DNA from: a virus
Direction: 5' to 3' (one strand)
Length of the DNA: 64,000 nt
IMG/VR virus record: IMGVR_UViG_3300027754_000069
Coordinates: 18,689-82,688 of that record
The position numbers and the translations under genes are program-made. Below are positions 21,742 to 64,000 of this stretch, in pieces (position 1 is the first letter of the stretch; each line of letters starts with the position of its first letter). The notes beneath the pieces were generated by a model. It was not told the DNA's origin, ran no database searches, and saw nothing but the letters and a program-made list of their open reading frames with translations.

Positions 21742-21941
21742 TCACGATTCTTTCCAGCTACTAGTTCATACAGGCTGTCAACACGAAGTTCTAATCTATC
21801 GAGTGAGTCACGCATCGAGCTGCCTGAATTTGGTTTCAATTCTGTGAGGTAGTGTTTTACTAACCAACGAACTGAGCCAGCAAAGCTGGCAACTATTGTG
21901 GCAGTGGCAACAGCCAAGCCAGCCCATTCGTTGGTAGACAT
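21738..21941 (-). CDS. Single-TM lysis-module membrane protein
   Basis: TM segment plus ELKPNSGSSMRD coiled segment. Confidence 0.75.
   Translation of the reverse strand: MSTNEWAGLAVATATIVASFAGSVRWLVKHYLTELKPNSGSSMRDSLDRLELRVDSLYELVAGKNRE
21749..21847 (+). repeat. Exact repeat, copy 1 (at least 99 bp; matches 63902-64000)
   Basis: Base-by-base comparison. Confidence 0.9.
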
Positions 21942-22129
21942 TATTCTGCTCCGCGTCCGAAGTCTGTTGAAGATCCGTCAAGCCACTTAAGAACTGGACC
22001 AAGGAACCCTGTTAGAGCTGCTGTTCCCAGAACCTTAAGGTCCGTCTGACCAGCAAGATAAAGTGCGACAGCAGCAGATGCTGCTGCACGGAACCAAGAT
22101 AATGCTATTGCTTGAAACTTTGCGTTCAT
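21941..22129 (-). CDS. Holin
   Basis: 62 aa, two TM segments, P.LKWLD...FGRG tail. Confidence 0.75.
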   Translation of the reverse strand: MNAKFQAIALSWFRAAASAAVALYLAGQTDLKVLGTAALTGFLGPVLKWLDGSSTDFGRGAE

Positions 22130-22145
22130 TGTTTTCTCCTTAAAT

Positions 22146-22172
22146 AAAAAACCCCGCCGAAGCGGGGTTTTT
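22146..22172. terminator. Bidirectional terminator
   Basis: AAAAACCCCGC-CGAA-GCGGGGTTTTT. Confidence 0.85.
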
Positions 22173-22183
22173 AATAGTTGTTA

Positions 22184-22531
22184 TTATTCGGTTGGTAATT
22201 CAATCCAAGAGGTTGTGTCTTCATCCCATGAATAAAACTTGCCGTCAGTAGGCATTGGGGTTGGTGCTTCCCATAGGTAAGATTCTGTATTAAGAGTCCA
22301 TGATTGGTATGGTTGTGGGGCTGCAAAGCCTATGCCATCCCATGTATATCCAATACCTGCATAGTTCTTATTTAACGGTGTTCCACCTAGAGAGTGAACT
22401 CCACCATATGTATTGTATGAGGTCTTAATCCAAGTGCCTGTGTATCGATCAGGGTTTGCTTGTAGGAAATTATCTTCAACTACATTAACTTGAGTGACTA
22501 CGCCATCTTCTACTTTAGCCCAATGTGCCAT
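22184..22531 (-). CDS. Tail-fibre-associated protein
   Basis: MAHWA..V..V, W..TSYN..NYAGIGY, P.SW..W.AP.P.P.DG..Y.WDE. Confidence 0.7.
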   Translation of the reverse strand: MAHWAKVEDGVVTQVNVVEDNFLQANPDRYTGTWIKTSYNTYGGVHSLGGTPLNKNYAGIGYTWDGIGFAAPQPYQSWTLNTESYLWEAPTPMPTDGKFYSWDEDTTSWIELPTE

Positions 22532-22737
22532 TATTTATTATCCTTATCTTCTCCGTAAATAGCTACTGTATTTAGCAACTTAACATCACGCTTGGTGACA
22601 ATGCCACCCTTTTCATCTAATTGAGCCTTTGCTGTAGCTTCATCATCTGCGATGATGTGTACCAACATGGTGACTTCGTATGAAAAACATTGTGTTGGTT
22701 TTGTTTCTTTAATCTTAGTTACATTATCTTTAGTCAT
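22531..22737 (-). CDS. Hypothetical protein
   Basis: ORF in the fibre cassette; coupled to the next gene. Confidence 0.65.
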   Translation of the reverse strand: MTKDNVTKIKETKPTQCFSYEVTMLVHIIADDEATAKAQLDEKGGIVTKRDVKLLNTVAIYGEDKDNK

Positions 22738-22750
22738 TTAGTATCCTTTG

Positions 22751-24478
22751 TTAGACTGCATAACGAACTATAACAATACCAGAACCACCAGCACCAGAAG
22801 GGAGAGATGAATTATTAGATGCTTGTCCACCACCGCCGCCACCTGTGTTTGCAGTTCCGCTAAGAGGCTGCAAGACATCTTGGAAACATCCACCACGACC
22901 ACCGCCACCTGAACCACCTGAACCATTACCAGATGCCTGAAGAATAGAACCTCCACCGCCACCTGCGTAATAACCACTTACACCAGTTCCTGTTGCACTT
23001 GCTATAGCAGAATAAGTATTTACACCAACTCCACCGTTGCCACCAACACTTGTTGTTCCTGTTGCACCTACTGCACCAGCACCACCACCACCACCAGAGC
23101 CGTAGTTTGCATTGTTGTTTGCTCCACCACCAGCGTAACCTTCTACTGGAGAATATGAGCCAGCGTTACCTGCTGAGCCTGTTCCATCTTCACCAGCACC
23201 TCCGCCTGAACCACCAGTTTTACCAGCCTTCCAAGTTCCACCATTACCACCACCACCACCTCCGCCTGTTGCACTATTACCTGCAAAAGATGAGTTAGTG
23301 CCGTTAGGGGCTTCTGTTGATGTTCCATTAATGCCAGCACCGCCACCGCCAACTACTGCATTGTATGTAGTTCCAGAAGCAAAAGATTGTGAAGAGAAAT
23401 ATCGTAGACCGCCCGCTCCACCGCCTCCGCCAATTTGACCACCACCTGCACCACCACCTGCAACTATTAAGTAGTCACAAGTTAATGCAGTTGATGGAAC
23501 AAATGCTCCGTCTGATAAAAATGTGTGATAGAAATATCCACCAGAAAATACAATAGTTCCGCCAGTTGCTTTTGCAGTACCTGTATAAAATGTTTCGTCT
23601 GATAAGAATGTATGGTAGTAATAACCACCAGATGAAACTACAGTTCCACCGTATGCTTTTTGTGTAGCAGATTGATATCGGGCAATAACAATCCCAGAAC
23701 CACCGCCACCACCAATGCCACTTGCATTATTACCTGCACCGCCACCGCCACCGCCTCCTGTGTTTACGGTTCCGTTTGTTCCATTACCCCCTGCAACACC
23801 TGCACCACCGCCACCAGATCCACCAGCACCAACATTTGCAACATACGCAAATACACCGCCACCGCCACCAGCATAATAACCGCTGTTAGCACCAGTTGAT
23901 GTAGCACTAGCAAAAGTTGAATATTGTTTTCCTATGCCACCAATTCCAGCAGTAGTAGCACCACTTGCGTTAGTACCAGCACCACCAGCACCACCACCAC
24001 CGCCACCGCCATAACTAGGTGCAGTAACCATATTTCCGCCAATGTTACCAAAACCTTTTCCGCCGTAAGATGTTTGTGTTGATGTTCCAGCAGAAAGTGA
24101 CGAACCCTCTGCTTGACCACCACCTGAACCACCATTAAGAGTTCCCGAGTTAAATCCTTGTGATCCACCTCTACCACCACCATTAGCAGTATACAAAGAA
24201 CCAAATACTGAATTTCCACCAAGACCACCACCAACACCATAAGTACCAGTAGCAGCACCGCCTGCACCAACTGTTACGGCATATGAAGTAGATAGATTGA
24301 GAGTATCGTTTTCTGAATAAACAAGACCTCCACCACCACCACCACCAGCAGTATAATAACCACCTCCGCCACCACCAGCAACAACTAACATATCAACAGT
24401 CAAAGTTGAGGGTGCAAAAGTTCTCATACCGCCCAAGCCTCTGGCTGAGCCTCCTGCTAATGTACCGATAACTGGCAT
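22751..24478 (-). CDS. Glycine-rich tail fibre / receptor-binding protein
   Basis: Two LxVAGGG...GSGIVIxRY glycine-rich domains joined by GG..YYYHTF repeats. Confidence 0.8.
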   Translation of the reverse strand: MPVIGTLAGGSARGLGGMRTFAPSTLTVDMLVVAGGGGGGYYTAGGGGGGGLVYSENDTLNLSTSYAVTVGAGGAATGTYGVGGGLGGNSVFGSLYTANGGGRGGSQGFNSGTLNGGSGGGQAEGSSLSAGTSTQTSYGGKGFGNIGGNMVTAPSYGGGGGGGAGGAGTNASGATTAGIGGIGKQYSTFASATSTGANSGYYAGGGGGVFAYVANVGAGGSGGGGAGVAGGNGTNGTVNTGGGGGGGAGNNASGIGGGGGSGIVIARYQSATQKAYGGTVVSSGGYYYHTFLSDETFYTGTAKATGGTIVFSGGYFYHTFLSDGAFVPSTALTCDYLIVAGGGAGGGQIGGGGGAGGLRYFSSQSFASGTTYNAVVGGGGAGINGTSTEAPNGTNSSFAGNSATGGGGGGGNGGTWKAGKTGGSGGGAGEDGTGSAGNAGSYSPVEGYAGGGANNNANYGSGGGGGAGAVGATGTTSVGGNGGVGVNTYSAIASATGTGVSGYYAGGGGGSILQASGNGSGGSGGGGRGGCFQDVLQPLSGTANTGGGGGGQASNNSSLPSGAGGSGIVIVRYAV

Positions 24479-24493
24479 TTTTAGATCTCCTTA

Positions 24494-25054
24494 TTAGGCA
24501 AACTTGGTTTGTGTCTCAAGAACTGTAAATGTTGCTGATGCTGTCTTAATAATTGTAAATGAATATGCATCGATAGACGATGCGTTGCCAGCCGAAATTG
24601 TTGCTGGAACCTTTGGGGTTACAGTAGTTCCATCGATCTGGATTGTGTTTGGATAATAAGCACTAGCACCGTTAGTGTTAAGCCATACTACAGTTATTGC
24701 ATCACCAACCGCTAGTGCAGTATTAAGGGATACGCTAGAACTGTATCGAATGTTAAGAGTATGGTTTGCTGTTGCGTTAGATGTGTAATACCAGATAGAA
24801 GCAGTCTCAACATTTAAGTTGATTGTGCCAGTTGCAGCAGAAGCTACAACATTGACATCTTCTTCTAACCCTCGAACTACTGTGTCTTCAAGGGTTCCAC
24901 CCTTTGCACGAGCTAGAGGGAATCCACCTGCTGTGGATCCATCATGTACTACTACAACATCCTTATCAGTATCTACTGTCAATTCGCCCAGTAGTCCTGT
25001 AAAGGATGCGTGTTGTGCCGTAGTTCCTCTACGGCGTTGGAATGCGAATGGCAT
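24494..25054 (-). CDS. Tail fibre protein with Mtd-like N-terminal anchor
   Basis: QRRRGT...FTG..GELTVDTD....VHDG...GG.PL. Confidence 0.75.
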   Translation of the reverse strand: MPFAFQRRRGTTAQHASFTGLLGELTVDTDKDVVVVHDGSTAGGFPLARAKGGTLEDTVVRGLEEDVNVVASAATGTINLNVETASIWYYTSNATANHTLNIRYSSSVSLNTALAVGDAITVVWLNTNGASAYYPNTIQIDGTTVTPKVPATISAGNASSIDAYSFTIIKTASATFTVLETQTKFA

Positions 25055-26673
25055 TAGATCGTTCCCCAATCTGCTAAGGAAGCCCAGTTAGCTGAGGTTC
25101 CGTTGTTAGTCATGAAATAACCACTTACACCAGAAGTTATAGTTGGTATATAACCTGCTGCCGTAGTGGCACTTGCTGCAGCAGATGATGCTGATGTAGC
25201 TGCAGAAGACGCTGATGTCGCAGCCGAAGTCTGCGATGTTAAAGCACTCGAAGCAGAGGTCGCTGCCGAGGTAGAACTAGTTAATGCATTGCTTGCATAT
25301 ACACCAGCAGATCCTGCTGATGTTGCAGCCGATGAGGCTGAGGTAGCAGCAGCTGACTGTGATGCAGCAGAACTTGTTGCACTTGTCTGTGCAGCAGTGG
25401 CTGATACACCAGCAGATCCTGCACTGGTTGCTGCGCTTGATGCGCTTGTTGCAGCGGATGCTTGTGATGTTGCTGCGCTAGAAGCTGAAGTAGAAGCTTG
25501 TCCTGCAGATGTTACCGCAGTAGCTGCTGATGTAGTAGCCGTTGCTGCAGATGCTGAAGCAGCAGACGCTGACGCAGATGCAGAATTAGCTGATGTTAAA
25601 GAACTTGATGCTGAAGTAGCAGCACTTGCTGCTGATGTATTTGTATTTGCTTCAACAGATGATAATGAAATCCATGTTCCAGTGGAAGTATCAGCGGTTG
25701 TGATATCACCCATGTCTCTAACGAGACCAGATGCAACTTGACCAGCAACTGTTGATGCTGAACCAGCAGCAGAAGATGCTGATGTTCCAGAAGATGTTGC
25801 GCTGGTAGCTGCAGAGTTGGCTGATGTTACTGCTGCCGATGCTGAAGCTGCTGCGCTAGTAGCACTAGTAGCAGCAGATGTAGCAGAAGTTAAAGCAGAC
25901 GATGCAAATGTAGATGCGCTTGACTGTGATGTGCTGGCTGCGGTAGCAGAAGCTGCTGCTGAAGAAGCACTTGTTGCAGCGGAGGTAGCACTAGTGGCTG
26001 CCGATGTGGCAGATGTAGCTGCTGCAGATGATGCTGTACCAGCATTAGTTGCTGCAGTGGTTGCACTAGATGCAGAGGTTGCTGCCGAGGTTGCTGATGT
26101 AGCAGCACTGGATGCGCTAGTTGCTGCAGCAGTTGCACTGCTTGCAGCAGCGGTAGCAGAACCTGCAATAGTAGTTACGTATGCTAAGTTAGCTGCATCA
26201 CCAGATGTTGTTGGTGTTGCTACGTTTGTAATCTTGTAGCTATTAGCATTGATGACACCAGCAGCGGTAATAATTGCTGCAGATAAAGTCTTTGTTCCAG
26301 TAAGGGTTTGTGTCCCACCAGTGCCGACAACGTCGCCTGTAATGCCATGGATATCAGTAGTTGCTACTTCGTGTTGGCGAGACTCGGTAAAGTCTCGAGC
26401 CGATACGCCGTGTTCAACGTTAGCACCAAAGGCGTGTGCCTTAGCACCTGATGAGTCAATGTTACGAGTGATCTGATAGGCAGTACCTACCAGACTGGTA
26501 ACTTCGACTACTTCTTCATTAGCTGTATCCTTCTCAAGAATGAGTGTGTATGGATATTGCGCTGGAAGATTGCTTGCAGCAGCAAGCGTAAGGCTTACTG
26601 CTGAAGAACTTATCGATGCAGCAAGAGTTGTCTTAGCTGCATTCGAACTATAGTAACGTGCTTGTGTTGGCAT
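25054..26673 (-). CDS. Tail fibre with long Ser/Ala/Thr (SATSA) repeat
   Basis: EEVVEVT..R..D...A.AH..GA.V.H anchor plus Stf-like repeats. Confidence 0.8.
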   Translation of the reverse strand: MPTQARYYSSNAAKTTLAASISSSAVSLTLAAASNLPAQYPYTLILEKDTANEEVVEVTSLVGTAYQITRNIDSSGAKAHAFGANVEHGVSARDFTESRQHEVATTDIHGITGDVVGTGGTQTLTGTKTLSAAIITAAGVINANSYKITNVATPTTSGDAANLAYVTTIAGSATAAASSATAAATSASSAATSATSAATSASSATTAATNAGTASSAAATSATSAATSATSAATSASSAAASATAASTSQSSASTFASSALTSATSAATSATSAAASASAAVTSANSAATSATSSGTSASSAAGSASTVAGQVASGLVRDMGDITTADTSTGTWISLSSVEANTNTSAASAATSASSSLTSANSASASASAASASAATATTSAATAVTSAGQASTSASSAATSQASAATSASSAATSAGSAGVSATAAQTSATSSAASQSAAATSASSAATSAGSAGVYASNALTSSTSAATSASSALTSQTSAATSASSAATSASSAAASATTAAGYIPTITSGVSGYFMTNNGTSANWASLADWGTI

Positions 26674-26676
26674 TCA

Positions 26677-27576
26677 TCACCTCTGGTACTGGATTATGTT
26701 GAGGAAGTTGGCTTGCTGCTTTGCCACCTCTTCCGCAAGGCGGACGGAGTAAAGCTGGAATAGATATTTAGCAGCAGTAGTAGATGCGCCAGCAGATACT
26801 GGTTGATCTAATGCGTCTGCAGAAACTGATGTGGCAATTACCTTGCCTGGGTCTACTGTTGAAAGTAGGCGATACATAGCACCAAGACGAACAACATCTT
26901 CACATGATGCGGGAAGACCACTTACTGTCAACTCTTGGCTATCTGTAATGGTTGTCGGATAGGCTGTGTACTGAACGTTAATACGAGCACCAGCCATAGG
27001 TGCTTCATTAAGCACAATAGCCTGACCATATGTATCTGTATCTTCGTCATAATAATTGGTATCAATACGCCATCTTTTAATAAGAGCCCATACTCCAGTA
27101 GCGTCTGGCAGTTCCCATGAAACACCAGTGATATCTACAACTGTGCTTGGGATTGAGTATGCGTATTGTGAGCCAGTAAAATCAAAGTTTGTTTCTTTAA
27201 TAACTGGAAAGTTCATTCCTTTTATAGTCTCGAGCAATGCTCGTTTAACTTGTGTCCTTGGAAATAAAGGATTGTTTCTTACTATAGATCCAGACACATG
27301 GCTAGTTGCTGTAGTCCCACGCCATCCTCGACCAACAGGATTAGCTGATGTTCCAAGAATAGAAAGGTTACCGCTTGCTGCAATAGATTTCTTTACATAT
27401 AAGAGTTCATCATCAATCTCAATGATGCCTTTGCTTATAGCTGATGCATCGTCAACTGCAATAGACAAGTCGTCACCATCAACGGTATTAAGTGCAATCG
27501 TTACCGATTCCTGGTTGCGGACATAGCCATTAATCTCACCAAGCGTTTGTTCTGTTAATTGATTTAACGTAGCCAT
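26677..27576 (-). CDS. Tail adaptor (tubular A-like) protein
   Basis: Position; IEIDDEL..RGWRGT...H insert. Confidence 0.6.
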   Translation of the reverse strand: MATLNQLTEQTLGEINGYVRNQESVTIALNTVDGDDLSIAVDDASAISKGIIEIDDELLYVKKSIAASGNLSILGTSANPVGRGWRGTTATSHVSGSIVRNNPLFPRTQVKRALLETIKGMNFPVIKETNFDFTGSQYAYSIPSTVVDITGVSWELPDATGVWALIKRWRIDTNYYDEDTDTYGQAIVLNEAPMAGARINVQYTAYPTTITDSQELTVSGLPASCEDVVRLGAMYRLLSTVDPGKVIATSVSADALDQPVSAGASTTAAKYLFQLYSVRLAEEVAKQQANFLNIIQYQR

Positions 27577-27818
27577 TATGCTTGTAACGCCTTTCCTGCT
27601 TTATCAGACATACGGACAGCTTTTTCAATGTCCTTTATCTTGGTTGATGCTGGCTGAATGCCATCTTTCCTTGCGTTTCTATACGCATTAAGTTCTTTAT
27701 TTGTAAGTTTGTTTGCTGCACTAGACAGAGGGTCTGTAATACTAAAGTTAGCTGCCTTGGCACACTCACCCCAGTTAGCATGGTCTTGGGTCTTACAGCC
27801 TGATCTACAATTAGACAT
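27576..27818 (-). CDS. Hypothetical protein
   Basis: CRSGCKTQDH..WGEC, EL.AY..AR..GIQP. Confidence 0.75.
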   Translation of the reverse strand: MSNCRSGCKTQDHANWGECAKAANFSITDPLSSAANKLTNKELNAYRNARKDGIQPASTKIKDIEKAVRMSDKAGKALQA

Positions 27819-28065
27819 TGAAAACGTAATCTCCGTATCCCGCTGCTGCTAGTTCTACTGCTTCTGCATCTGTTATGACGTTGTCATAACCACCACGTAA
27901 TACGCGTTGGTATGTTGCTAGATCTGAATCCTGTGGGACGACTATTGTTTTCCAAACGCCACCAGTTTTAACAACGCTCTTACCAATAGGATAAGAAACA
28001 AACCATAGGTCATACTCACGACCAGGTCTGTATTTGTATGTTGGTCCACGAAATACCTTTGCCAT
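27811..28065 (-). CDS. Hypothetical virion-module protein
   Basis: TAATG coupling; RGG..N...AE...L.AAGY. Confidence 0.75.
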   Translation of the reverse strand: MAKVFRGPTYKYRPGREYDLWFVSYPIGKSVVKTGGVWKTIVVPQDSDLATYQRVLRGGYDNVITDAEAVELAAAGYGDYVFNV

Positions 28066-28340
28066 TACCACTTCACCTTGTCTGCCCAATAGGCTGCTGA
28101 CATAACACCCTTGCTAATATTCTTTGCATGACGTGCCTTAAACGATTGGCGACGTTGGCGGTACTTTTTAGTCTCGCCAGCTTTTTCAGGTGAACCTGAT
28201 ACACCCTGCTGACCAAAACGAATAGTCTTAATTTGTGAGCCAGATTTGGCTACAACAATGTGAGACTTTTTTAGATGCGTTGGTGTAGCTTTTGGTTTAT
28301 TAAAACCAGATACACCTGCTCGTTTTAGCCTTGGGTCCAT
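28065..28340 (-). CDS. Basic protein (DUF6321/DUF5754-like)
   Basis: IRFGQQG..RRQSFKARH..SAAYWA..KW. Confidence 0.7.
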   Translation of the reverse strand: MDPRLKRAGVSGFNKPKATPTHLKKSHIVVAKSGSQIKTIRFGQQGVSGSPEKAGETKKYRQRRQSFKARHAKNISKGVMSAAYWADKVKW

Positions 28341-28511
28341 TTACTTCTTCTTTACTTTAGGTTTTCTAATTCCCGACTTGGCTTTACCAGATGCTGATAA
28401 AGCAATTGCAATTGCTTGCTTTGGGTTCTTAACTACCTTGCCACCTTTACCTGAATGTAAAGTGCCAGTTTTGAACTCATGCATAATTCCTTGAACTGAT
28501 TTCTTTGGCAT
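28341..28511 (-). CDS. 56-aa basic protein (DUF6496-like)
   Basis: Read manually: MHEFKTGTLHSGKGGKVVKNPKQAIAIALS. Confidence 0.8.
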   Translation of the reverse strand: MPKKSVQGIMHEFKTGTLHSGKGGKVVKNPKQAIAIALSASGKAKSGIRKPKVKKK

Positions 28512-28705
28512 TATTTCTTCTTTTTAATCGCTGGCTTTTTAACGCCAGGCTTCTTCATATCAGAATTCTTCATCATCTTGCCATTCATCATATGCATGCC
28601 ACCTTTTGTAGAACCATATTCTTTCTTACGTGCAGATGAACCTTCAGTTGTTTCGTGCTTCTTCATTGCTTTCATTGAAGTATACTTTTCATTCTTCGCT
28701 GACAT
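28511..28705 (-). CDS. Lys/Met-rich basic protein
   Basis: MSAKNEKYTSMKAMKKHE...; coupled to neighbours. Confidence 0.7.
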   Translation of the reverse strand: MSAKNEKYTSMKAMKKHETTEGSSARKKEYGSTKGGMHMMNGKMMKNSDMKKPGVKKPAIKKKK

Positions 28706-28901
28706 CTTCTTCTTCTTCCTCAAAATCATCCATGTCATTCTCTGACATTGGTGCGGGAAATTCCCAGTCTGGCAATTGGCGAGTTAATAGATCCCAAGCT
28801 TCAGCATCACTAAAGCCAGCATCCATAAATGCTTTATACATTTCATGCGCTTCGTAGGCGTAAGCCTGGAGCGGTGTAATTAGATCTAACTCTTCGCTCA
28901 T
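28689..28901 (-). CDS. Small acidic protein
   Basis: HEMYKAFMDAGFS..EA; AAGGA SD. Confidence 0.75.
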   Translation of the reverse strand: MSEELDLITPLQAYAYEAHEMYKAFMDAGFSDAEAWDLLTRQLPDWEFPAPMSENDMDDFEEEEEDVSEE

Positions 28902-28915
28902 AATTTCCTTAAGTA

Positions 28916-28942
28916 GAGAGGGGCAGTTGCCTGCCCCTCCCC
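28916..28942 (-). terminator. Hairpin after the capsid gene
   Basis: GAGGGGCAG..CTGCCCCTC stem. Confidence 0.6.
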
Positions 28943-28948
28943 ATCAAA

Positions 28949-29926
28949 TTAAGCAGACGCGATAGATGACTTGCTCTTGATAACGTAACGTGCTTCTGTA
29001 CGGAAGACGTTCCATCCAAGAAGACCCTTCCAGCCCGCTGGGCGGAAGCGCATCAACTTATCTGTAACTGGACCGATAACAGTCTTTGGCTCGTATGAGA
29101 CAGCCTCAAGAAGAGCCTGCTTTCCAAGTAGAACTGTTGCGTATACCTTTGATGTACCAGAACCTGAAACAGATTCAGCACGAGGTGTTTCGATATAGCG
29201 AACCTGATCGAAGATTCCGATCTCGCCAGACCATAGGTTACCTACACCTGCTTCGGTGTATGTGTGAGGAAGCTGCCATACAGCAGATCCTGATGTTTGT
29301 GCTTCAGAACGAAGATCGTATGAAACATCTGGGTGGATTAGTGCAGTGTAGAGACCGCCTTCGCGTGTCTGAACATTTGCTCCACGTAGCTTTGCTACAC
29401 CACGGCGAGCAAGTGCTGCTGTGAAGTTAGCTGCTGAAGTTGAAGCTGAAACATCTTGTCCATTGAGTGTTGACTCATCGGCAGAAGTTGTTCCTGTGTA
29501 GCGACCTGTTGCTAAGGCAGTTAACTTAGTCCATACAAGTGAGTCCAGTGAGTCACGCATGTTGAAAGACAACATGTCTGCAACTGCTGGATCGATTGCT
29601 GATAGAGACTCAAGAGCAAGACGCTCAGTTGTTAGAACAGCATTACCGTATTCGTTCACTGTTACGTGGACGCGGTTGGTATTGCTTAGCTCTACTGCAT
29701 CTGGATCAGCTGTTTGAGTTAGTGCTGAAGTAGCACGAGATAGATCTGTGTAGACCTGAAATACGACAGTGTTACCTGGGTTTGTTACATCGACAGGACG
29801 CTTGTCCGCAAACTTGCGGAACATTGGTTCTGAACGAAGGTTAAACTCAATGTACTTGTCATACGCAGTCTGGATCAAGTTCGACATCGTTGATGTCGTT
29901 GTTGACGTGGCTGGTGTTGTTGGCAC
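28949..29926 (-). CDS. Major capsid protein (N4-gp56-like)
   Basis: EYGNAV, IHPDVxYDLR, GEIG.F..VRYIET, DKLMRFRP.GW; follows the scaffold. Confidence 0.88.
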   Translation of the reverse strand: MPTTPATSTTTSTMSNLIQTAYDKYIEFNLRSEPMFRKFADKRPVDVTNPGNTVVFQVYTDLSRATSALTQTADPDAVELSNTNRVHVTVNEYGNAVLTTERLALESLSAIDPAVADMLSFNMRDSLDSLVWTKLTALATGRYTGTTSADESTLNGQDVSASTSAANFTAALARRGVAKLRGANVQTREGGLYTALIHPDVSYDLRSEAQTSGSAVWQLPHTYTEAGVGNLWSGEIGIFDQVRYIETPRAESVSGSGTSKVYATVLLGKQALLEAVSYEPKTVIGPVTDKLMRFRPAGWKGLLGWNVFRTEARYVIKSKSSIASA

Positions 29927-29959
29927 GTTTAATTCCTTCTATTAGGGTTGATTGTATTG

Positions 29960-30418
29960 TTACCGTTTTAAGAAGTTGGTGAGCTCTTCCACTGAAGTAG
30001 CGTTGCTAATCAATGAATGAATGTCACGACCCACTGATGGGTCGACATCACCATCTTCAAAATTCGACATTTGCTCAAATGCTTGAGCATCAGGGTCTTC
30101 TTCTGAAGACTCTGATTCATCAACGGCAGTAATGCCAAAGGCATCGCCGTATTCATTTAACCATTCAGCTACTGCTTCCTCGTCGGCTTCAATATCCGAT
30201 GGAATAAATGCTGCGATTCTTGGATTGAGACCAAAACTTTCTAGTACTTCCCCGATAGCTGCTTCGTGACTATATGTCTGATACTCCTCAAGCTGTGAAT
30301 CTCTCTCCTTGATTTGCTTGGAAAGTTGATCTACTTGCTTGCGTAGTTTCTTTACTAAGTCAGTACCGTAGTCTTCGGTATCGTCTTCGAACGTTTCGTA
30401 CTCGTTATATTCTGCCAT
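29960..30418 (-). CDS. Capsid scaffolding protein
   Basis: Acidic coiled-coil protein immediately upstream of the capsid gene. Confidence 0.75.
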   Translation of the reverse strand: MAEYNEYETFEDDTEDYGTDLVKKLRKQVDQLSKQIKERDSQLEEYQTYSHEAAIGEVLESFGLNPRIAAFIPSDIEADEEAVAEWLNEYGDAFGITAVDESESSEEDPDAQAFEQMSNFEDGDVDPSVGRDIHSLISNATSVEELTNFLKR

Positions 30419-30422
30419 TGCT

Positions 30423-30556
30423 TTTTCTCCCTATTAGTTGTTGGACCCTCATCGGGTTTGCACCACACGTACTCCTCACAAGGGGAAGTGATTCATAGAC
30501 GTGATGACTACCAGACTGATACTCGTTACCTGGGCTGGTCGATCAGGAACGGAACT
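30423..30556 (-). ncRNA. Putative structured cis-regulatory RNA leader of scaffold/capsid genes
   Basis: Several stems and pseudoknot pairings in a 140-nt intergenic gap (see findings). Confidence 0.5.
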
Positions 30557-30559
30557 TAG

Positions 30560-32176
30560 TTATACGTCAGCTTTTTTACTACGACGTCCAAGAGAGGACG
30601 CATCAATTGCTGATTTCTGTGCAAACATTGCACGTTCTTTAGAAGCTAATCGCTTCTTCTTCATTGTTACATCTGCGCCACCTGCAAGAGCAAGCTCTTC
30701 ACGAGCTAGATCTTGAGTGCCACCTTGTTCACCATAGAGACCTGTAAGTCTTTGGTAATCGGCTTGGCTTGCAGCTGCAGACTGGAAGGCTGACTCTGCT
30801 TGAGCACCTTTACCAGATGTGTAAATTTCTTCTGCGAAAGCTTTGTCAGATAGTTGACCAGCACGTGCAGCAGCACCACCGATTTCGGCTGCGCCGTACA
30901 TCTTCTTAGCTTCTTCGGTTGTGTACTTAAACTTAGAGTTAACTAAGTCAAAAGCCTTTTCGCTGTCAAGCATATATGCAGCAAGTTCGCCTTCTGTCCA
31001 ACCGTAATATTCTTTAAGAGCATTCTTAGTGCTGTAATCAGCATTTTGCAAAGCATTCTTTGCAATATTAACACGGTCTGTAAGTTCGCTTACGCTGACT
31101 GAGTTTTCAATAAGACGACGGAAGTCGTCTTGTGTATCATAGAAACCAGTTGGTAATCCAGCCTCACGAAGAATTGATTCGTATCCTTTTTCTGCTTGGA
31201 TGTATTCGTATGGTGTAAGAAGCTTATCGCCAGGTCGACCCTTGCCATCCTTCATACGTGCAGCAATTGTTTCATTTGCAGCAAAACGAGTCTTATATGC
31301 CTCACTGTCATAAATACTATTAAGGATCTGAGCATCGGTTGGCATAATGTTTTCTTCATATACCTTATCGATTGCCTTATTTAATGAATCAATAAATCCA
31401 GCACCAAGACCTGTGTTCTGAAACATCTTTAATACGGAATCTTTAGCACCAAAATCTGTGTATGTATCAACCATGTTGCCCATGGTTCCATCTGACATAA
31501 CCTGCCAGACTTCTACAACTCCACCAGTTTTACGAATAGTCTTTTCGTATGCAACAGTCTTTGCTACTGGCTTATTAAATGTAGCCTGCATTGCTGCAAT
31601 TTGATTAAGCAAATCTGCAATCTGTGTATCAACTGCACCAGTTGCTGCAGTTACTGGATTAACAAATGTTGTAGATCCGCCATAGGTAGCAGTCGAAGTG
31701 CTTGTTGCTGTACTTGTCGCAGTGCTGGTCGCAGTGCTGGTCGCAGTGCTAGTCGCAGTAGAGGTCGCGGTGCTGGTTGATGTTGCTGTTCCAGTATCGC
31801 TTGGTGTATATGGTAAATTTTCAATTGGTGCAGATGGTGCAGCAGGAGCTGCTGGTGCTTTTGGCAGTGGTGGCTCTGTATAAATCTTAGTGCCAGACCA
31901 AATCATAGAACCATTGTTATACTTTGGATTGTTATCAATTGTTGGGTTGATAGCAAGAAGTTCTTTAACTGTCATGCCATTGTCTTTAGCAATTTGCCAG
32001 AATGTATCTCCTGGTTTTACTGTAACAAATTCACGTGGTGCTGGTGCTGAAGCAGCAACTGTACCTGACTTAGATGCAGCGGAAGCATTCTTCTCACTAG
32101 CCGTCATTCCATAATCAGCTACTGCTGACGCAAGCGGTGAATAATCTCCGCCATCTGACATATAATCTCTTGGCAT
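30560..32176 (-). CDS. LysM-containing internal virion (ejection) protein
   Basis: TVKPGDTFWQIAKDNGMTVKELLAINP; (TATS)n linker; helical C-terminus. Confidence 0.75.
   Translation of the reverse strand: MPRDYMSDGGDYSPLASAVADYGMTASEKNASAASKSGTVAASAPAPREFVTVKPGDTFWQIAKDNGMTVKELLAINPTIDNNPKYNNGSMIWSGTKIYTEPPLPKAPAAPAAPSAPIENLPYTPSDTGTATSTSTATSTATSTATSTATSTATSTATSTSTATYGGSTTFVNPVTAATGAVDTQIADLLNQIAAMQATFNKPVAKTVAYEKTIRKTGGVVEVWQVMSDGTMGNMVDTYTDFGAKDSVLKMFQNTGLGAGFIDSLNKAIDKVYEENIMPTDAQILNSIYDSEAYKTRFAANETIAARMKDGKGRPGDKLLTPYEYIQAEKGYESILREAGLPTGFYDTQDDFRRLIENSVSVSELTDRVNIAKNALQNADYSTKNALKEYYGWTEGELAAYMLDSEKAFDLVNSKFKYTTEEAKKMYGAAEIGGAAARAGQLSDKAFAEEIYTSGKGAQAESAFQSAAASQADYQRLTGLYGEQGGTQDLAREELALAGGADVTMKKKRLASKERAMFAQKSAIDASSLGRRSKKADV
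31695..31795. repeat. 12-bp tandem repeat encoding (TATS)n
   Basis: GTCGCAGTGCT(G/A) units. Confidence 0.8.
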
Positions 32177-32180
32177 TTAC

Positions 32181-45627: not shown

Positions 45628-45740
45628 TTGGACTCCAGTGTCTGTAGTGGTACAGAGGGGTCTGGGCAGAAGTATCCCCACTCTTGCATATATAACCATT
45701 AGGCTGGCATTAAGCCAGCCACAGAAGGCTCAATAAGTAT

Positions 45741-46016: not shown

Positions 46017-46029
46017 TTGCCTAACTATC

Positions 46030-49217: not shown

Positions 49218-49230
49218 CACGTGCATTCTT

Positions 49231-49263: not shown

Positions 49264-49285
49264 CGACCAAACCGAAAGGAGAAAG

Positions 49286-50008: not shown

Positions 50009-50015
50009 GGAACAA

Positions 50016-51297: not shown

Positions 51298-51335
51298 TAC
51301 ACTCACACCAACAACCCAACACGAAAGGAAGTACC

Positions 51336-55491: not shown

Positions 55492-55502
55492 CGGAGCACC
55501 TT

Positions 55503-56150
55503 TCAGTTGTTAATTGCATTAACTAAATCAGCTAATGCTTGCGCTCCTTGGTTGACAATTATACTATTAACATCGCTATCTGGCGGTAGCGACACGCGGA
55601 CAGCTTGAGGGATTGCATCCTGCAATCGACGAGCAAGTTCCTGCCCTGGATTAGAGCCATCCTCTTTAGCATCGTTGTCAGTACAGATTACAACAGTGCC
55701 AATCCCATCAAAACACCTACTAAAATAAGGCTTCCAAGCATTGACGCCAGCAACGGCAACCGCTGGGAACCCAGCAAGAGTCGCACTAATCGCATCTATT
55801 TCTCCCTCTACTACTAGCACTTGGCTAACTGCATTAACTATTGCACTGACATTGTATAGGTGGTGCTTCTGACCAGTAGGTATCATGTACTTAGGATCCC
55901 CGCCATCAATGCGACGGAACTTAAACCCAACTACACCAGCCTCTGTTATATAGGGGATGGATAGGTGATGCTTAAGTCTGTCCTCATGACCAGGTGCTAC
56001 CTCGGCTACGTAACCTAGCAAAAATTTTTCGGCTCCATCAAGGATGCCACGTTGTGTTAGGTACGCCTCTGCTGGTGAACCAGCAAGGCTGTTGTGGTAC
56101 TGATGTGCTGCTTTAGTCCAGAGATCTATGAGTTTGGGATTAGTCTTCAT
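55503..56150 (-). CDS. DNA primase Toprim half
   Basis: VEGEIDA, DND. Confidence 0.9.
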   Translation of the reverse strand: MKTNPKLIDLWTKAAHQYHNSLAGSPAEAYLTQRGILDGAEKFLLGYVAEVAPGHEDRLKHHLSIPYITEAGVVGFKFRRIDGGDPKYMIPTGQKHHLYNVSAIVNAVSQVLVVEGEIDAISATLAGFPAVAVAGVNAWKPYFSRCFDGIGTVVICTDNDAKEDGSNPGQELARRLQDAIPQAVRVSLPPDSDVNSIIVNQGAQALADLVNAINN

Positions 56151-56677
56151 ACTTTCTCCTGCCTGTGCGTAATGAATGGAGGTGCAGTGTATACATCATT
56201 GCGAGCAGCAATCTGCATTGCTTGTTTCCATGTTGCACCACCCGCTAGTGCGCCTAGTGCAAAGCTTGACCCTGACCCTACGCCATACAGCCCATCATCA
56301 CGTAAGTATACAGAATAAGAATCATCTACTTGGTAGATAGTTCCATTGATTGCAAGTATAAACTCAAACCCAGCATCTGCATCATCCTTATCTGGTACAT
56401 ACCCTGACTCCTTGATGCAATCTCTTATGCTTGGTGCAACAGTTGTAATCATAAAGTGATACATGTCTTTGATGTTAGCTGGTATAGCTGGCGGTTTCCA
56501 CACATGTTGTATCACATCACATGGTTGCACATCACCAGCACCAGCAATTAACCACTTACCCCGCTTGCTAATCTTAGTAACAATTGGATGTGAGTATGGT
56601 CTGTTCATTGCAGTGGTGCGTGAATCGGCTGCAAGAATGCAGCCGTTGTCTTGTTGGATACCAATAATTGTTGTCAT
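56147..56677 (-). CDS. Proteasome-beta/HslV-like Ntn hydrolase
   Basis: MTTIIG..AADSR..GSGS; ATGA overlaps at both ends. Confidence 0.85.
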   Translation of the reverse strand: MTTIIGIQQDNGCILAADSRTTAMNRPYSHPIVTKISKRGKWLIAGAGDVQPCDVIQHVWKPPAIPANIKDMYHFMITTVAPSIRDCIKESGYVPDKDDADAGFEFILAINGTIYQVDDSYSVYLRDDGLYGVGSGSSFALGALAGGATWKQAMQIAARNDVYTAPPFITHRQEKV

Positions 56678-57000
56678 CGAGATCGTAACCTTGGTGGTGT
56701 CCACCGCCCACTCTTCTTACTGCGACGATTGTGAACAATCGGAGTAGAAGATTCTTTGCCAATATTTTTTTCAGCCCATGACCGAGCTTCTGGGTATGCT
56801 AAATGTTCACGTGCCATGATGATCTGTATACCAGAACCACCAGCAGCACATGCATAGCATACCCAGACGCCCTTGTCTGAGTTAACTGAAGCAGATTTAC
56901 GAGAGTCGTCATGCACTGGACAGAGAATAGACTTCTCACCTTGCGGTAAGTCCAATCCATAATGATTAAAGACTGCTTCAAGAAACTCAGGCTGGTTCAC
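56674..57000 (-). CDS. DNA primase CHC2 zinc-binding half
   Basis: CPVHDD..CYAC. Confidence 0.9.
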   Translation of the reverse strand: MNQPEFLEAVFNHYGLDLPQGEKSILCPVHDDSRKSASVNSDKGVWVCYACAAGGSGIQIIMAREHLAYPEARSWAEKNIGKESSTPIVHNRRSKKSGRWTPPRLRSR

Positions 57001-57378: not shown

Positions 57379-57416
57379 AGTTACCTCTTTTCAGTTGGTA
57401 ACGCACTGTCACTGTG

Positions 57417-59350: not shown

Positions 59351-59352
59351 TG

Positions 59353-60496: not shown

Positions 60497-60704
60497 CGGG
60501 GTTCCATTCTGGGTGATCTACTGGTGTCGGTGCTGTCATTGGTGAGCCACAGTTGGCACAAAAAGAATCTAAGAACCACATAACTAGTTCGTAGTCTGAG
60601 AAGATTGCTCTGATAACTTGGACGTTACTCCCGCAATTAATACACTCATTGCTGGGTACGCCACGTTGGTCAATCCCCTGTGGAGTGTTGTCGGTAGAGC
60701 TCAT
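60474..60704 (-). CDS. Zn-ribbon protein between the nuclease halves
   Basis: Homolog of 18510. Confidence 0.8.
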   Translation of the reverse strand: MSSTDNTPQGIDQRGVPSNECINCGSNVQVIRAIFSDYELVMWFLDSFCANCGSPMTAPTPVDHPEWNPDDYRFDN

Positions 60705-60867
60705 GGTTTAACCACTCCAACATTGAATGGACGGCGGAGCCAGCAGCAAGATATACTGCGGGCTTTTCTGGAACCATGGCTACCTTACTCAGATAATATT
60801 TCTGAGGGCAGGACTGCCACGTGGATAGCTGGCTGAATGAGCGGTGCGGAGGAAGTTCATTTATCAT
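60670..60867 (-). CDS. Cas4/RecB-like exonuclease, N-terminal part
   Basis: Homolog of 18721..18912. Confidence 0.85.
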   Translation of the reverse strand: MINELPPHRSFSQLSTWQSCPQKYYLSKVAMVPEKPAVYLAAGSAVHSMLEWLNHELYRQHSTGD

Positions 60868-60902
60868 AGACATGAGTATACCTGACCAAGAGGCGATGTG
60901 TC
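60868..60902 (-). promoter_or_regulatory. Leaderless promoter of the replication operon
   Basis: GACAC-17-TATACT-7 nt-ATG. Confidence 0.7.
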
Positions 60903-60941
60903 GGTTACGACACACCTTGGTTATTTACCAGCATTAGTATA

Positions 60942-60963
60942 GGGTTGAGGGGTGGTGGGAGGG
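60942..60963 (+). other. G-quadruplex-type motif
   Basis: Identical to 18985-19006. Confidence 0.6.
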
Positions 60964-60992
60964 ATAGGCTGCTTTAGCAGCCTTATGAAAAG
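60963..60992 (+). promoter_or_regulatory. Hairpin element H8 (GATA-GGCTGC-TTTA-GCAGCC-TTATGAAAA)
   Basis: Same layout as the family; precedes the only rightward gene outside the early region. Confidence 0.55.
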
Positions 60993-61004
60993 ACATGGAG
61001 GAAA

Positions 61005-61214
61005 ATGAAACAGGAAGAACAGGATAAATGGAATGAGTATGTGGGTGGGCTTTTAGCCCACCATAAGAATGAAGAGCACGTAGAGCATATGAAGAAAGTA
61101 ATCATAAAGATTTTAGAGACAAGAATCCCAGCGAAAGATAACTGGTGTGAGGGTTTTAATACTGGCTTAGAGTGGTCAGTTCGTATTTACTTAAAAGATA
61201 AATCTGCTTACTAA
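61005..61214 (+). CDS. Hypothetical protein (B-only moron-like insert)
   Basis: GGAGG SD; EGFNTGL motif; bounded by H8 and a terminator. Confidence 0.7.
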   Translation: MKQEEQDKWNEYVGGLLAHHKNEEHVEHMKKVIIKILETRIPAKDNWCEGFNTGLEWSVRIYLKDKSAY

Positions 61215-61216
61215 AT

Positions 61217-61253
61217 AAAAAAAGAGGGGGACGATTAAGTCCCCCTCCTCTTC
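61217..61253. terminator. Bidirectional terminator
   Basis: Conserved with 19050-19086. Confidence 0.8.
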
Positions 61254-61258
61254 TAGCC

Positions 61259-61474
61259 CTACCATTCTGGTGGAGCAACTGCGAGCGCATCCAGCGTGGC
61301 TTTATTGATGCACCCGACTGCTGGGATGTCATAGCGATGCTGCAACCCTTTAAGTATTTCCTGTAGGGGAGCATCTAGCCGATCATCACCAGCAACATTA
61401 AGAGCTACACGTACTTGTGTAACCAATGGCGATCTTTCTTCTGGTAGTACTAACGGTAAATATGTTTCAATCAA
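61259..61474 (-). CDS. Stand-alone peptidoglycan-binding-domain-like protein
   Basis: Homolog of 19093. Confidence 0.65.
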   Translation of the reverse strand: MIETYLPLVLPEERSPLVTQVRVALNVAGDDRLDAPLQEILKGLQHRYDIPAVGCINKATLDALAVAPPEW

Positions 61475-63378
61475 ACTACTACTTCTTCTGTGTCGATTGT
61501 TTGCAATTGCAGTGTGACGATACCGCCGAACCCGCTTGCAAAAGTGGGAGGTGCAGTTTGCTCAAACTGAATAGCACGGATAACACAGATTCTTTCTTCT
61601 CCTGAGTTGAAATCTTGGTAGAGTACTGCTCCGCCATTCTGCTCAATAGACTCAAGGTATTGGATTCTCTCCCATGGGCTGGAGACTCGTGTGTTTCCAT
61701 TTGGATCTCTTTCTTCCTCATAGCAAAGCAAAGGTATTGTTATTGTTCGTGAACGCAGTGGTGATGGAAGAGCACGTACTTGCCATTCAGTTAGCGTTGG
61801 TCCAAGTGATGATGTAGTTGTATCTCGCGCAAAGTTAAATGTAACTTGGAATACGTCAGCTGGTGATATATAACTAGCAAGCGCAGCTTCAGTGTTAGGA
61901 CCAAATGGAACTGTTCCAGTTGTTAATAGTTGGTCAGCGTTATCATCAAGGTTAAACCCAAGTGTTCCGCTAGAATCTGGATCTGACTTAATGCTTAGTG
62001 ATACTGGTTGTTTCTTTTCTCCAGTACCCCATCGGATTAATCCAGAGCTAAGGTAGCCAGATGCAGCCAGGGTAGTTGCATGTTCTACCCATGTGCCAGA
62101 TGAGGATGTCATAAATTTTAATCCAGTAGTTCCAACAAAAGCTATACCGTTTGGAGCATTGCTATCTGTTACAAGATCTGGAGCGTAGGCATAACCGTTG
62201 TCAATAGCTTGACCAAGGTTAAGACGCCATAACCCAGCAGAACCTGAAACAAGATTTGATCTTGTCGCATATACATATGATTCATCTTGTGCTACATCTT
62301 TTACATCGCCATCGACGTTGATGGGACCGTAAGTAAATGATTGACCATCTGTCCCAATAGTTCCAATACGTAAACCTTTTGTTGTAGCAAGGATTACATA
62401 TTCATTAAGGTATGTTCGCAGTTGATTAACTGTTTCACCACGAGGTAGCTCAGCAATAATAGTTGGTCCAACAATTGCAGCAGTAGGTGAGGTTGGATTA
62501 ATTGTGTACATTTGAACACGTGATATAGCACCTTGTGTATAGGCAACCACAACAGCACTTGGTAATTCTGCAATTGAATTAAATGTTATAGATGAATTGG
62601 CAAAGGTAAACCTTATATCACCACTAGCCATGTTTACAGGTGGACTGGTTGGATTTCTTGCCAACTCATAGAGATGCATATCTGTGTTATCGTGCATAAC
62701 TCCAGCAACAATTCTATCTTTGACATATGCAATAGATTGAACTGTTTGTGTGGTAACACCTGTCTTCTTGGAGTATAACTTAGTCACAGCTAACGCTGTG
62801 GTTACCTGATAGATACCATCGTTAGTTCCTACCAATGCATAGGTTCCATCCGATGTCAATGTTTGTGCAGTTGTTGATGTGCCTAATGATGTTGTTGTGG
62901 TGGTTGATCCATTGTAGAACTTAACAGAACCACCAGAAATATAAAAGGTTCCGCTAGATACCGTGGCAGGGCTAGTGGCTGAAGAGGTTGTTAAGTTTGT
63001 TGTAGCGGGAAGAAGCTTTAATTCACCAAGAGTCCATGGGTCTATGTTGTTTGATTCGTAGTAGCGATAGAGATCGCTAGTATCAGCGTCATAGTATTGC
63101 TCGCCCGCACCATGATGCCATGATGTAGCAGAACGTAACCACCAGTTTGTCAATGACTGTTCACCAGTCAATGTTCCTTGGTCAATACGTTCCTTCTGGT
63201 AAGTCGTAGTGATACGACTGATACGGTTGTTGTCAGATGCAGCTGATAACCAAGGTGTGTTACCAATGGCATAGCTTGCAGCAAAGTCTTCCCTGCCGTA
63301 TCGAACCAATGCTGTAGGCACGTTAGTGCTAATAGCAATAGGTAGATCACCTTTAAGATACTTGTTGGTCGTTGCCAC
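61471..63378 (-). CDS. Tail (nozzle-like) structural protein
   Basis: Homolog of 19311. Confidence 0.6.
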   Translation of the reverse strand: MATTNKYLKGDLPIAISTNVPTALVRYGREDFAASYAIGNTPWLSAASDNNRISRITTTYQKERIDQGTLTGEQSLTNWWLRSATSWHHGAGEQYYDADTSDLYRYYESNNIDPWTLGELKLLPATTNLTTSSATSPATVSSGTFYISGGSVKFYNGSTTTTTSLGTSTTAQTLTSDGTYALVGTNDGIYQVTTALAVTKLYSKKTGVTTQTVQSIAYVKDRIVAGVMHDNTDMHLYELARNPTSPPVNMASGDIRFTFANSSITFNSIAELPSAVVVAYTQGAISRVQMYTINPTSPTAAIVGPTIIAELPRGETVNQLRTYLNEYVILATTKGLRIGTIGTDGQSFTYGPINVDGDVKDVAQDESYVYATRSNLVSGSAGLWRLNLGQAIDNGYAYAPDLVTDSNAPNGIAFVGTTGLKFMTSSSGTWVEHATTLAASGYLSSGLIRWGTGEKKQPVSLSIKSDPDSSGTLGFNLDDNADQLLTTGTVPFGPNTEAALASYISPADVFQVTFNFARDTTTSSLGPTLTEWQVRALPSPLRSRTITIPLLCYEEERDPNGNTRVSSPWERIQYLESIEQNGGAVLYQDFNSGEERICVIRAIQFEQTAPPTFASGFGGIVTLQLQTIDTEEVVV

Positions 63379-63387
63379 GATTTACCC

Positions 63388-63894
63388 CTACTTCTTAGAC
63401 GGACAGTGCTGACAGCATTTAGATGTATCTTCTGCTGGGTAAGCTTTCTTTACTGGTATAGCAGCAACGGCTGCTCTTACTTGATTAATTAACTTAGGTT
63501 GATTCATCCACCAGAACCATGGGCTAGTGTCGTTACCCATATCTTCATTGATGGATACATGTAGATGCTTACGATGCATGTTGCTACCTGTATAATTACG
63601 GTCACCTTGTTTAGCACGTTCTCTTGACCAGATCTTACCGTTAAATATTAAATACTTAACACGCTTGTCTTCTTTAAGCTTTTGAAAAATATCAGCGCAA
63701 TCAATACCGTTAGCAGGATCATGTGTTAGATCAGTTGCGAGCCCAGTATTGTGGTCCGAAGTCGGGCTTTGTTTGACATGGGCAGCAGATGGTAGAAGAC
63801 CATCGCTGATCTTCTTGCGCTTCGGCTTTAACGCCGTCGCTTGGCGAAGCACAGCAATTGCAGCAGGTGTGGCTCTCTTGGCTACAGTTGTCAT
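63388..63894 (-). CDS. Endolysin, Zn-peptidase
   Basis: Homolog of 21235. Confidence 0.75.
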   Translation of the reverse strand: MTTVAKRATPAAIAVLRQATALKPKRKKISDGLLPSAAHVKQSPTSDHNTGLATDLTHDPANGIDCADIFQKLKEDKRVKYLIFNGKIWSRERAKQGDRNYTGSNMHRKHLHVSINEDMGNDTSPWFWWMNQPKLINQVRAAVAAIPVKKAYPAEDTSKCCQHCPSKK

Positions 63895-64000
63895 TCACGA
63901 GTCTTTCCAGCTACTAGTTCATACAGGCTGTCAACACGAAGTTCTAATCTATCGAGTGAGTCACGCATCGAGCTGCCTGAATTTGGTTTCAATTCTGTGA
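63891..64000 (-). CDS. 3' part of lysis membrane protein (truncated by window end)
   Basis: Matches 21738-21847 with one mismatch. Confidence 0.8.
   Translation of the reverse strand, partial: TELKPNSGSSMRDSLDRLELRVDSLYELVAGKTRE
63902..64000 (+). repeat. Exact repeat, copy 2
   Basis: Identical to 21749-21847. Confidence 0.9.

Follow-up and report, generated by a model that had tools for sequence, protein, structure and literature searches.

An 82.7-kb freshwater phage contig is very probably a chimera of two genomes joined at a shared 199-bp block

Phage mosaicism produced by homologous recombination at gene boundaries is well known from the lambdoid and other tailed phages. Mosaic sequences also arise in assembly, as repeat-induced contigs that join different genomes. 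In these contigs, two genomes share one exact repeat above the k-mer or overlap threshold, the crossing lies inside that repeat, and both contig ends fall within it. A related class is the concatemer contig, for which CheckV uses a k-mer-frequency statistic aimed at repeats of the same genome (PMC8116208).

We analyzed a window of 64,000 nucleotides that comprises bases 18689-82688 of a single-contig viral assembly of 82,688 bp, so that the end of the window is also the end of the contig. The initial annotation described two diverged phage genomes, here called A and B, fused through a segment in which 21749-21847 equals 63902-64000. This identity is exact, with a mismatch already at the first base to the left, but the block shared by A and B (block X, 21749-21947) is really 199 bp long rather than 99. 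As to how far identity or A-type sequence continues past 64000, nothing lies beyond that position, and it is the contig start that supplies the last 88 nt of the block: the first 88 nt of the contig equal 21860-21947. The final 99 nt of the contig equal the first 99 nt of block X, leaving a gap of 12 nt (21848-21859) between the two contig ends. Accordingly, A measures 40,547 bp and B 42,153 bp, a total of 82,700 bp that exceeds the contig by those 12 nt.

The contig divides into four segments. A-specific DNA extends from contig base 89 to window position 21748 (window 1-21748) and belongs to the full 40,547-bp A circle. Block X is the point at which A switches to B. The following 41,954 bp (21948-63901) are specific to B and, with block X, make up the 42,153-bp unit whose size had been correctly given. 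Finally, 63902-64000 repeats the first 99 nt of block X and completes the B loop of the assembly graph. Because both contig ends lie inside block X, the figure-of-eight geometry proposed in the initial annotation is exact: the join lies inside an exact repeat common to both genomes, and this repeat also sets the contig ends.

Outside the block, A and B are clearly different phages. An alignment of the two covers 69% of their length, with 72% identity. The genes in 1-21.7 kb do have colinear, diverged counterparts downstream, as had been claimed, located 40.5-43.6 kb away, in most cases 40.8-42.2 kb. Nucleotide identity per high-scoring segment is 64-82%, and 64-79% for most, the one exception being a 61-nt match at 92%. 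Many genes in A and many in B have no counterpart, among them the B tail and host-recognition module (22751-26673, minus strand), which encodes a Gly-rich-domain protein of 575 aa, a tail protein of 191 aa and a tail fibre of 539 aa. By comparison, the large terminase of B (43738-45699, minus strand), which opens the leftward late operon, is 87% identical in amino acids to the A copy at 2943-4832. Apart from block X, the longest exact match between A and B is 56 bp, and no 100-nt window reaches 100% identity. An exact run of 199 bp is far beyond chance; we estimate its probability at about 1e-18 per position at the local identity of ~80%. The description of A as free of GATC also holds, with no site in all 40.4 kb, compared to 126 sites in B, the first of them 25 nt after block X. 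The 6-mer palindromes absent from A differ from those absent from B as well. This contrast in GATC across the genomes implies that A and B have had long separate histories, and the two profiles, which point to different selective pasts, change over at block X.

Block X lies almost entirely within one small gene, g67 (21738-21941, minus strand), covering codons 1-64 of 67 and 6 nt upstream. Translation and hydropathy give a 67-aa product that is hydrophobic in a single N-terminal segment and charged in its C-terminal half; it matches phrog_9869, a family with no assigned function. The start of g67 overlaps g62 and its stop overlaps the start of g168, all in one operon. The B copy of g62 (21941-22129, minus strand) encodes a holin-like protein of 62 aa with hydrophobic, membrane-like segments, 88.7% identical in amino acids to the A copy at contig positions 82-270. 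On the other side, g168 of A (21235-21741, minus strand) shares 81% amino acid identity with the B copy (63388-63894, minus strand), and both are endolysin candidates. LAS-type (M15-like) peptidases are defined by a metal-binding H-x(3-6)-D together with H-x-H on a characteristic fold, and 16 homologues of g168 all keep the motifs SDHNTGLAxD and HLH unchanged. The top three Foldseek matches are the zinc endopeptidase domain of VldE (E 5.6e-3, prob 1.0, TM 0.34/0.52), for a g168 model with a mean pLDDT of 56 and a core of 70-93. Profile searches of g67, g62 and g168 against Pfam, NCBIfam and the PDB gave no match. From its motifs and modeled fold, g168 is a probable LAS-type zinc peptidoglycan peptidase. 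Holins are small proteins with at least one transmembrane segment and a charged C-terminus that lesion membranes and are encoded beside the endolysin; in size, hydrophobic segments and position, g62 and g67 fit putative holins with no family match, and g67 may be a holin, an antiholin or another membrane protein that assists lysis. The label of a lysis or holin region is thus plausible for a 67-aa gene with one hydrophobic segment between a membrane-like g62 and a probable LAS peptidase, and is in part borne out.

The history of block X differs from that of its neighbor. In the g168 tree, A and B fall in separate starred clades, and a single clade of A plus B is rejected (p-AU 9e-7). In the tree of block X, A and B are identical and sit in a starred clade with members of the two lineages intermingled, and a monophyletic A lineage is rejected (p-AU 0.007). 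The block is 98% identical in relatives of the B lineage and 92-96.5% identical in those of the A lineage, well above its flanks; both lineages, whose flanking sequences are 77-88% identical, carry this group of g67 alleles (92-98% identity). Within the contig, identity steps abruptly from ~80% to 100% at 21749 and back down at 21948. Block X thus combines an abrupt step in identity with a history at odds with its flanks. The block itself is real in both phages, and the incongruence between it and the adjacent g168 supports a recent exchange of the 67-aa membrane-protein gene, as had been proposed for the lysis module. The direction of the transfer is one that we can only infer.

Relatives of these phages are numerous and of single-genome length. 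We confirmed at least 577 in IMG/VR and at least 517 in JGI metagenomes, and their longest contigs are 38-42.6 kb, with none near 80 kb among the matches listed (at least ~1,100). The two nearest phage records, both unannotated, are 38.9 and 39.1 kb; they were the only matches to the junction region in a blastn search more sensitive than megablast, at 76% identity. Single relatives carry g62, g67, g168 and g635 contiguously. A megablast search with 24 kb of B found no match among GenBank phages. The 517 or more metagenome relatives came from a protein-guided scan with the g168 of A; none exceeded 90% amino acid identity among the matches listed, and none of those listed was a sister assembly of A itself. 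The exact 61-nt core of block X was found neither in IMG/VR nor in JGI metagenome contigs, so no other assembly there displays the junction directly.

The abundances of A and B were compared in three samples, the probable source run (X1) and two others (X2 and X3), using the mean depths of Logan k=31 contigs (2017 runs), which are not read counts. In X1, A had a depth of 9.7-10.6 against 13-16.5 for B, and in X2 the values were 8.1-9.9 against 3.2-4.4. In X3, B had a depth of 2.1-4.2 and there was no A piece among those listed. The A:B ratio therefore moves from ~0.7 to 2.5 to ~0, and the two phages vary independently, as expected of a chimera, while the equal and linked abundance expected of a heterodimer is not seen, since ratios vary both within and between samples. 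Bins over 22.4-24.4 kb reach depths of 50-87, but we rejected these values as copy number because they sum contigs of many other organisms that match a glycine-rich repeat gene. Runs X4-X24 held small shares of the sampled words, and X4 gave only diverged relatives; these runs were not used as evidence.

Contigs from these samples also show how A is closed. Record 12 of X2 (5,266 nt) reads from A sequence entering block X (from 19106) through the block, itself without differences, into A sequence leaving it. It differs from the reference at exactly 30 positions, the same number as the mismatches between outgoing A and outgoing B sequence computed from the contig start, and the 21 printed differences match 21 of those 30 in position and letter. 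Because this independent contig reads from A through the block and back into A, A closes on itself. In X1, the contig of incoming A sequence ends 30 nt into block X, which is where a branch breaks a k=31 graph. For B, the corresponding path is seen in parts, as 21881-22155 in X3 (without differences) and as the contig's own end, which runs from B into the block.

We conclude that the 82.7-kb contig is very probably an assembler-made chimera of two separate phages, combined with ordinary phage mosaicism at block X. A and B are related phages, with no integrase found, that co-occur in one freshwater sample, and block X is a nearly gene-sized patch recently moved between their lineages, by our reading through homologous recombination. 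In a k-mer or overlap graph, the block is the sole sequence common to both, and it is this that creates a figure-of-eight. We infer that the assembler began on A just past the block, followed that loop to its end, passed through the block into B and, having completed B, halted at the block. Some observations count against this reading: the depths of A and B in X1 differ just 1.3- to 1.6-fold, the path of B across the block is seen in parts, and one value of k cannot explain contig ends of both 88 and 99 nt. Both k-1 = 88 and k = 99 would be usual for a pipeline that runs several values of k and then merges overlaps, although applying this to the present contig is speculative. If the assembler used read pairs to cross the block, some support for an A-to-B connection may exist.

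The initial annotation had left open whether the contig is a chimera or a physical heterodimer. In the latter case, A and B would have recombined at block X in co-infected cells, and the assembler would have faithfully reported a circular heterodimer or hetero-concatemer of ~82.7 kb. The contig is only 12 nt short of a closed circle of A, block, B and block, the source run contains both phages at comparable depths, and the block shows that recombination between the lineages occurs. We nevertheless consider this very unlikely, given the shifting A:B ratio, the A-to-A contig in X2, the long separate histories implied by GATC, and the fact that none of the relatives among the matches listed has a contig above 42.6 kb. 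Additionally, 82 kb could not fit into a capsid built for ~41 kb. The independent abundances and the A-to-A contig decide in favor of the chimera, and a physical heterodimer is unsupported. There is a similarly slim chance that a minority of molecules in the source sample were true hetero-concatemers, formed by recombination at block X in one co-infected cell; the contig would then be a captured recombination intermediate of phages with different restriction-site avoidance profiles. It is less probable still that the identity of block X is an artefact in which the assembler collapsed two similar segments to one consensus. The copy at 21749-21947 could in principle stem from either genome, but an independent k=31 assembly of A-dominated X2 gives the block unchanged between incoming and outgoing A, the X3 contig carries its right part into B without differences where no A piece is listed, and the contig ends with incoming B plus 99 nt of the block. 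The high conservation of the block in relatives of both lineages also argues against a collapse.

As the terminal repeat of two linear genomes of the T7 type, block X would mark genome ends within what would still be a chimeric contig. It flanks each unit, both contig ends lie inside it, and 199 bp falls within the sizes of T7-type repeats. A terminal direct repeat is expected to be non-coding and to lie at the physical ends, beside the packaging genes. Block X instead encodes 64 of the 67 codons of a gene that overlaps both neighbors in its operon, and the large terminase is ~24 kb away, where it heads the late operon at a divergent early/late region. Among named terminases, the nearest ones lie at the genome ends of their phages. 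Perfect identity beside flanks of ~80% would also be unexpected in a terminal repeat, the alleles of block X show recombination among lineages, and we regard this reading, like the collapse, as highly improbable. Tandem related prophages are known, and A and B might have lain side by side in a bacterial chromosome. We give this next to no credence: scans with PHROGs and Pfam found no integrase in 40 ORFs of B (nearly all B genes of at least 180 aa), there is no tRNA, and the junction falls within a gene of the lysis operon rather than at an attachment site. Both contig ends fall within block X, so neither is flanked by host DNA.

As a chimera, the contig matters mainly for data quality. Because both genomes are complete, it resembles a plausible 82.7-kb phage genome, and two genomes of ~41 kb entered as one record would distort statistics of genome size, completeness, clustering and gene content. 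What is real biology here is modest: one small gene of the lysis cassette passed between co-occurring phage lineages, which makes a clean example. Since these lineages differ in their tail-fibre modules and restriction-site avoidance, the exchange of g67 implies that they share a common host at least occasionally.

Compared with known repeat-induced chimeras, the contig shows the same anatomy; nothing essential differs, and the case of A and B is unusually clean. Like the concatemers recognized by CheckV (PMC8116208), it holds more than one genome's sequence, its length being roughly double the ~41 kb usual in its group. Its units differ from concatemers in being only ~72% identical, with a mean 20-mer multiplicity of 1.009, so tests for repeated k-mers should miss it and only a check of length against expected length would flag it. 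T7-type terminal direct repeats resemble block X as short exact repeats that flank a unit-length genome, but the block is coding, inside an operon and far from the terminase gene. The block itself resembles lambdoid-type mosaicism, which shares the abrupt step in identity, a patch of nearly exactly one small gene and a history in conflict with its neighbor; here, the same pattern appears in uncultured freshwater phages, with a g67 allele group present in two lineages.

As the initial annotation had noted, the sequence at 21749-21847 recurs without a single difference at 63902-64000; a self-match of the window shows that identity breaks off immediately to the left. The assembly is one contig of 82,688 bp, and because the window covers its bases 18689-82688, base 64000 is the contig end. 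The 18.7 kb preceding the window are the remainder of A, the first of the two joined phage genomes, and are colinear with 21.9-40.7 kb in B, the second. Since the first 88 nt of the contig are identical to 21860-21947, the exact A/B block, here called block X, spans 199 bp (21749-21947). The last 88 nt of this block open the contig, its first 99 nt close it, and the whole block lies at the switch from A to B, so the figure-of-eight structure proposed from the sequence was right. Closed into circles, the genomes measure 40,547 bp (A) and 42,153 bp (B). Together these make 82,700 bp, 12 nt more than the contig, and those 12 nt (21848-21859) lie between its two ends. The longest exact A/B match besides block X is at most 56 bp, and nowhere else do the genomes reach 100% identity over a 100-nt window. 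At a k-mer or overlap threshold of 57-199, the A/B graph is therefore two loops touching at block X, and the contig is a single walk through both.

Each loop corresponds to one complete genome of this phage group, as judged from the sizes and gene order of relatives. Relatives of g168, a gene beside block X named for its 168-aa product, were confirmed at least 577 times in IMG/VR and at least 517 times in JGI metagenome contigs. Among the relatives listed, the longest contigs lie at 38-42.6 kb, with none near 80 kb, and the nearest two phage records in GenBank measure 38.9 and 39.1 kb. The genes around the block, g62-g67-g168-g635, are contiguous on single contigs of relatives (31-41.6 kb).

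We searched public sequencing runs with 10 kb spanning the junction and compared the four best-matching runs with 11749-31748, using k=31 contigs and the depths of contig pieces. In run X1, the probable source, A pieces had depths of 9.7-10.6 and B pieces 13-16.5; in X2, from a different sample and study, the values were 8.1-9.9 and 3.2-4.4; and in X3, a third sample, no A piece was listed while B pieces lay at 2.1-4.2. The A:B ratio thus shifts from about 0.7 to 2.5 to 0, showing that the two genomes are not obligately linked. In X1, the contig entering block X from A ends at 21778, 30 nt inside it, the point at which branching is expected in a k=31 graph if B-specific sequence also enters. 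In X2, a 5,266-nt contig spans 19106 through the block to 22142 and then departs from the reference, from which it differs at 30 positions, none within the block. Exactly 30 mismatches were computed between the sequences leaving the block in A (the contig start) and in B over 21948-22142, and the 21 X2 differences shown individually match these in position and base. In this second sample, assembled independently, A-specific sequence therefore flanks the block on both sides without a break; A closes on itself, and its block is identical to the window copy. Across all runs, the gene for a 575-aa glycine-rich-domain protein (PF21722; 22421-24421) had a summed depth of 50-87 and more than 150 "joints" from other contigs, which reflects repetitive Gly-rich coding sequence common to many lake organisms, not copy number.

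Self-comparison bore out that the genes of 1-21.7 kb have colinear but diverged counterparts, here at 40.6-64 kb with offsets of 40.5-43.6 kb. Aligned pieces share 64-82% nucleotide identity, except for one 61-nt match at 92%, and for most genes of A the protein has a counterpart in B, at 35-96% amino acid identity; about two dozen ORFs in each genome have none. GATC is absent from A (about 150 expected) and occurs 126 times in B, the state changing at block X. Similarly, CTCGAG occurs 0 times in A and 10 in B, and TTTAAA 13 times in A and 0 in B (18 expected). The palindromic 6-mers missing from A are ACGCGT, CTCGAG and TGCGCA; those missing from B are AGCGCT, GCTAGC, GGTACC, GTGCAC, TCGCGA and TTTAAA. 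The tail-fibre/host-recognition genes are swapped wholesale (B, window 22751-26673; A, contig 520-4327, before the window), with no counterpart across genomes for the 575-, 191- and 539-aa proteins of B or the 571-, 100- and 589-aa proteins of A, a swap that fits different host strains. The GATC contrast, the differing missing 6-mers and these unrelated modules further mark A and B as distinct lineages. CCGG and GGCC are absent from both genomes (Markov expectation 39-61 each) and missing or nearly so in almost all of 80 related loci. GATC among relatives is bimodal, at 0 or about 3-5 per kb, with both states scattered over both lineages. This site avoidance suggests that restriction acts strongly, and in a strain-specific way, on the phage group as a whole.

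On the minus strand, B encodes, in order, the large terminase, portal, a protein of 1,651 aa and several proteins whose matches are lysozyme/transglycosylase-like; the major head protein, tail fibre and glycine-rich-domain protein; the small genes g115, g62 and g67, then g168 and the 635-aa protein; and a replication block with exonuclease, helicase, HslV-like peptidase, primase and sigma factor. A rightward early block sits between the two ends of this series. The HslV/proteasome-beta-like peptidase gene (phrog_1040; 56147-56704 in B, 14099-14659 in A) lies inside the replication block and adjoins primase. Immediately downstream of the lysis cassette, the 635/637-aa protein (61471-63378 in B, 19311-21224 in A) has phrog_11667, of unknown function, as its sole match, is negative in Pfam and, at 57% A/B identity, is far more diverged than its neighbors.

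Block X comprises codons 1-64 of g67 (21738-21941, minus strand) plus 6 nt upstream. The g67 start overlaps the g62 stop, and its own stop overlaps the g168 start. The g67 product is hydrophobic in a single N-terminal segment and charged in its C-terminal half, and that of g62 has membrane-like hydrophobic segments. In g168 (63388-63894 in B, 21235-21741 in A), SDHNTGLAxD and HLH motifs resembling LAS-peptidase metal motifs are invariant, and a CC..C cluster is conserved at the C-terminus. Pfam, NCBIfam and PDB sequence searches with g168 returned no match. The three best structural matches to its model, which has a confident core, were the zinc endopeptidase domain of VldE, at weak scores (E 5.6e-3, probability 1.0, TM 0.34/0.52). 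The g168 product may represent an undescribed endolysin family, abundant in freshwater phages, and "lysis cassette" is thus a reasonable but unproven label for g62, g67 and g168.

The recent exchange at block X that had been proposed is upheld by conflicting trees of g168 and the block, built from 38 relatives having both segments. The g168 tree has two strongly supported clades, one of 17 rows that includes A and one of 8 rows that includes B, and a single clade for A and B is rejected (p-AU 9e-7). In the tree of the block, A equals B within a supported 12-row clade mixing both lineages, and A-lineage monophyly is rejected (p-AU 0.007). In g168, A-lineage relatives share only about 87% identity with A, yet they are 92-96.5% identical to the block; B-lineage relatives reach 98% to the block, and others 67-85%. 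Because synonymous sites are also identical, protein-level selection alone is insufficient. These sequence relationships argue that the g67 allele moved between lineages, the A/B copy being the latest such event. The nearest alleles are those of B-lineage phages, which weakly suggests transfer from B to A.

The initial annotation had left open whether the contig is an assembly chimera or a real hetero-concatemer. The self-closure of A in X2 and the depth ratios favor the former, and we consider the tandem arrangement very probably an assembly artefact; the real residue is ordinary phage mosaicism. That true heterodimers or hetero-concatemers existed as a minority in the source sample is highly improbable: the depths argue against them, and nothing requires such a molecule. 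A terminal repeat common to both genomes is unlikely, as block X is coding, within an operon and about 24 kb from the terminase gene. The independently assembled contigs of X2 and X3 contradict the idea that the identity was produced by consensus building. Tandem prophages are excluded, as a scan of 40 B ORFs, covering almost every B gene of at least 180 aa, found no integrase, no tRNA genes were found and neither contig end carries host DNA.

A walk of this kind through two related genomes differs from the concatemers that CheckV detects. Its statistic seeks k-mers repeated within the same genome (PMC8116208), whereas the mean 20-mer multiplicity of the A/B contig is 1.009, so that test would miss it.
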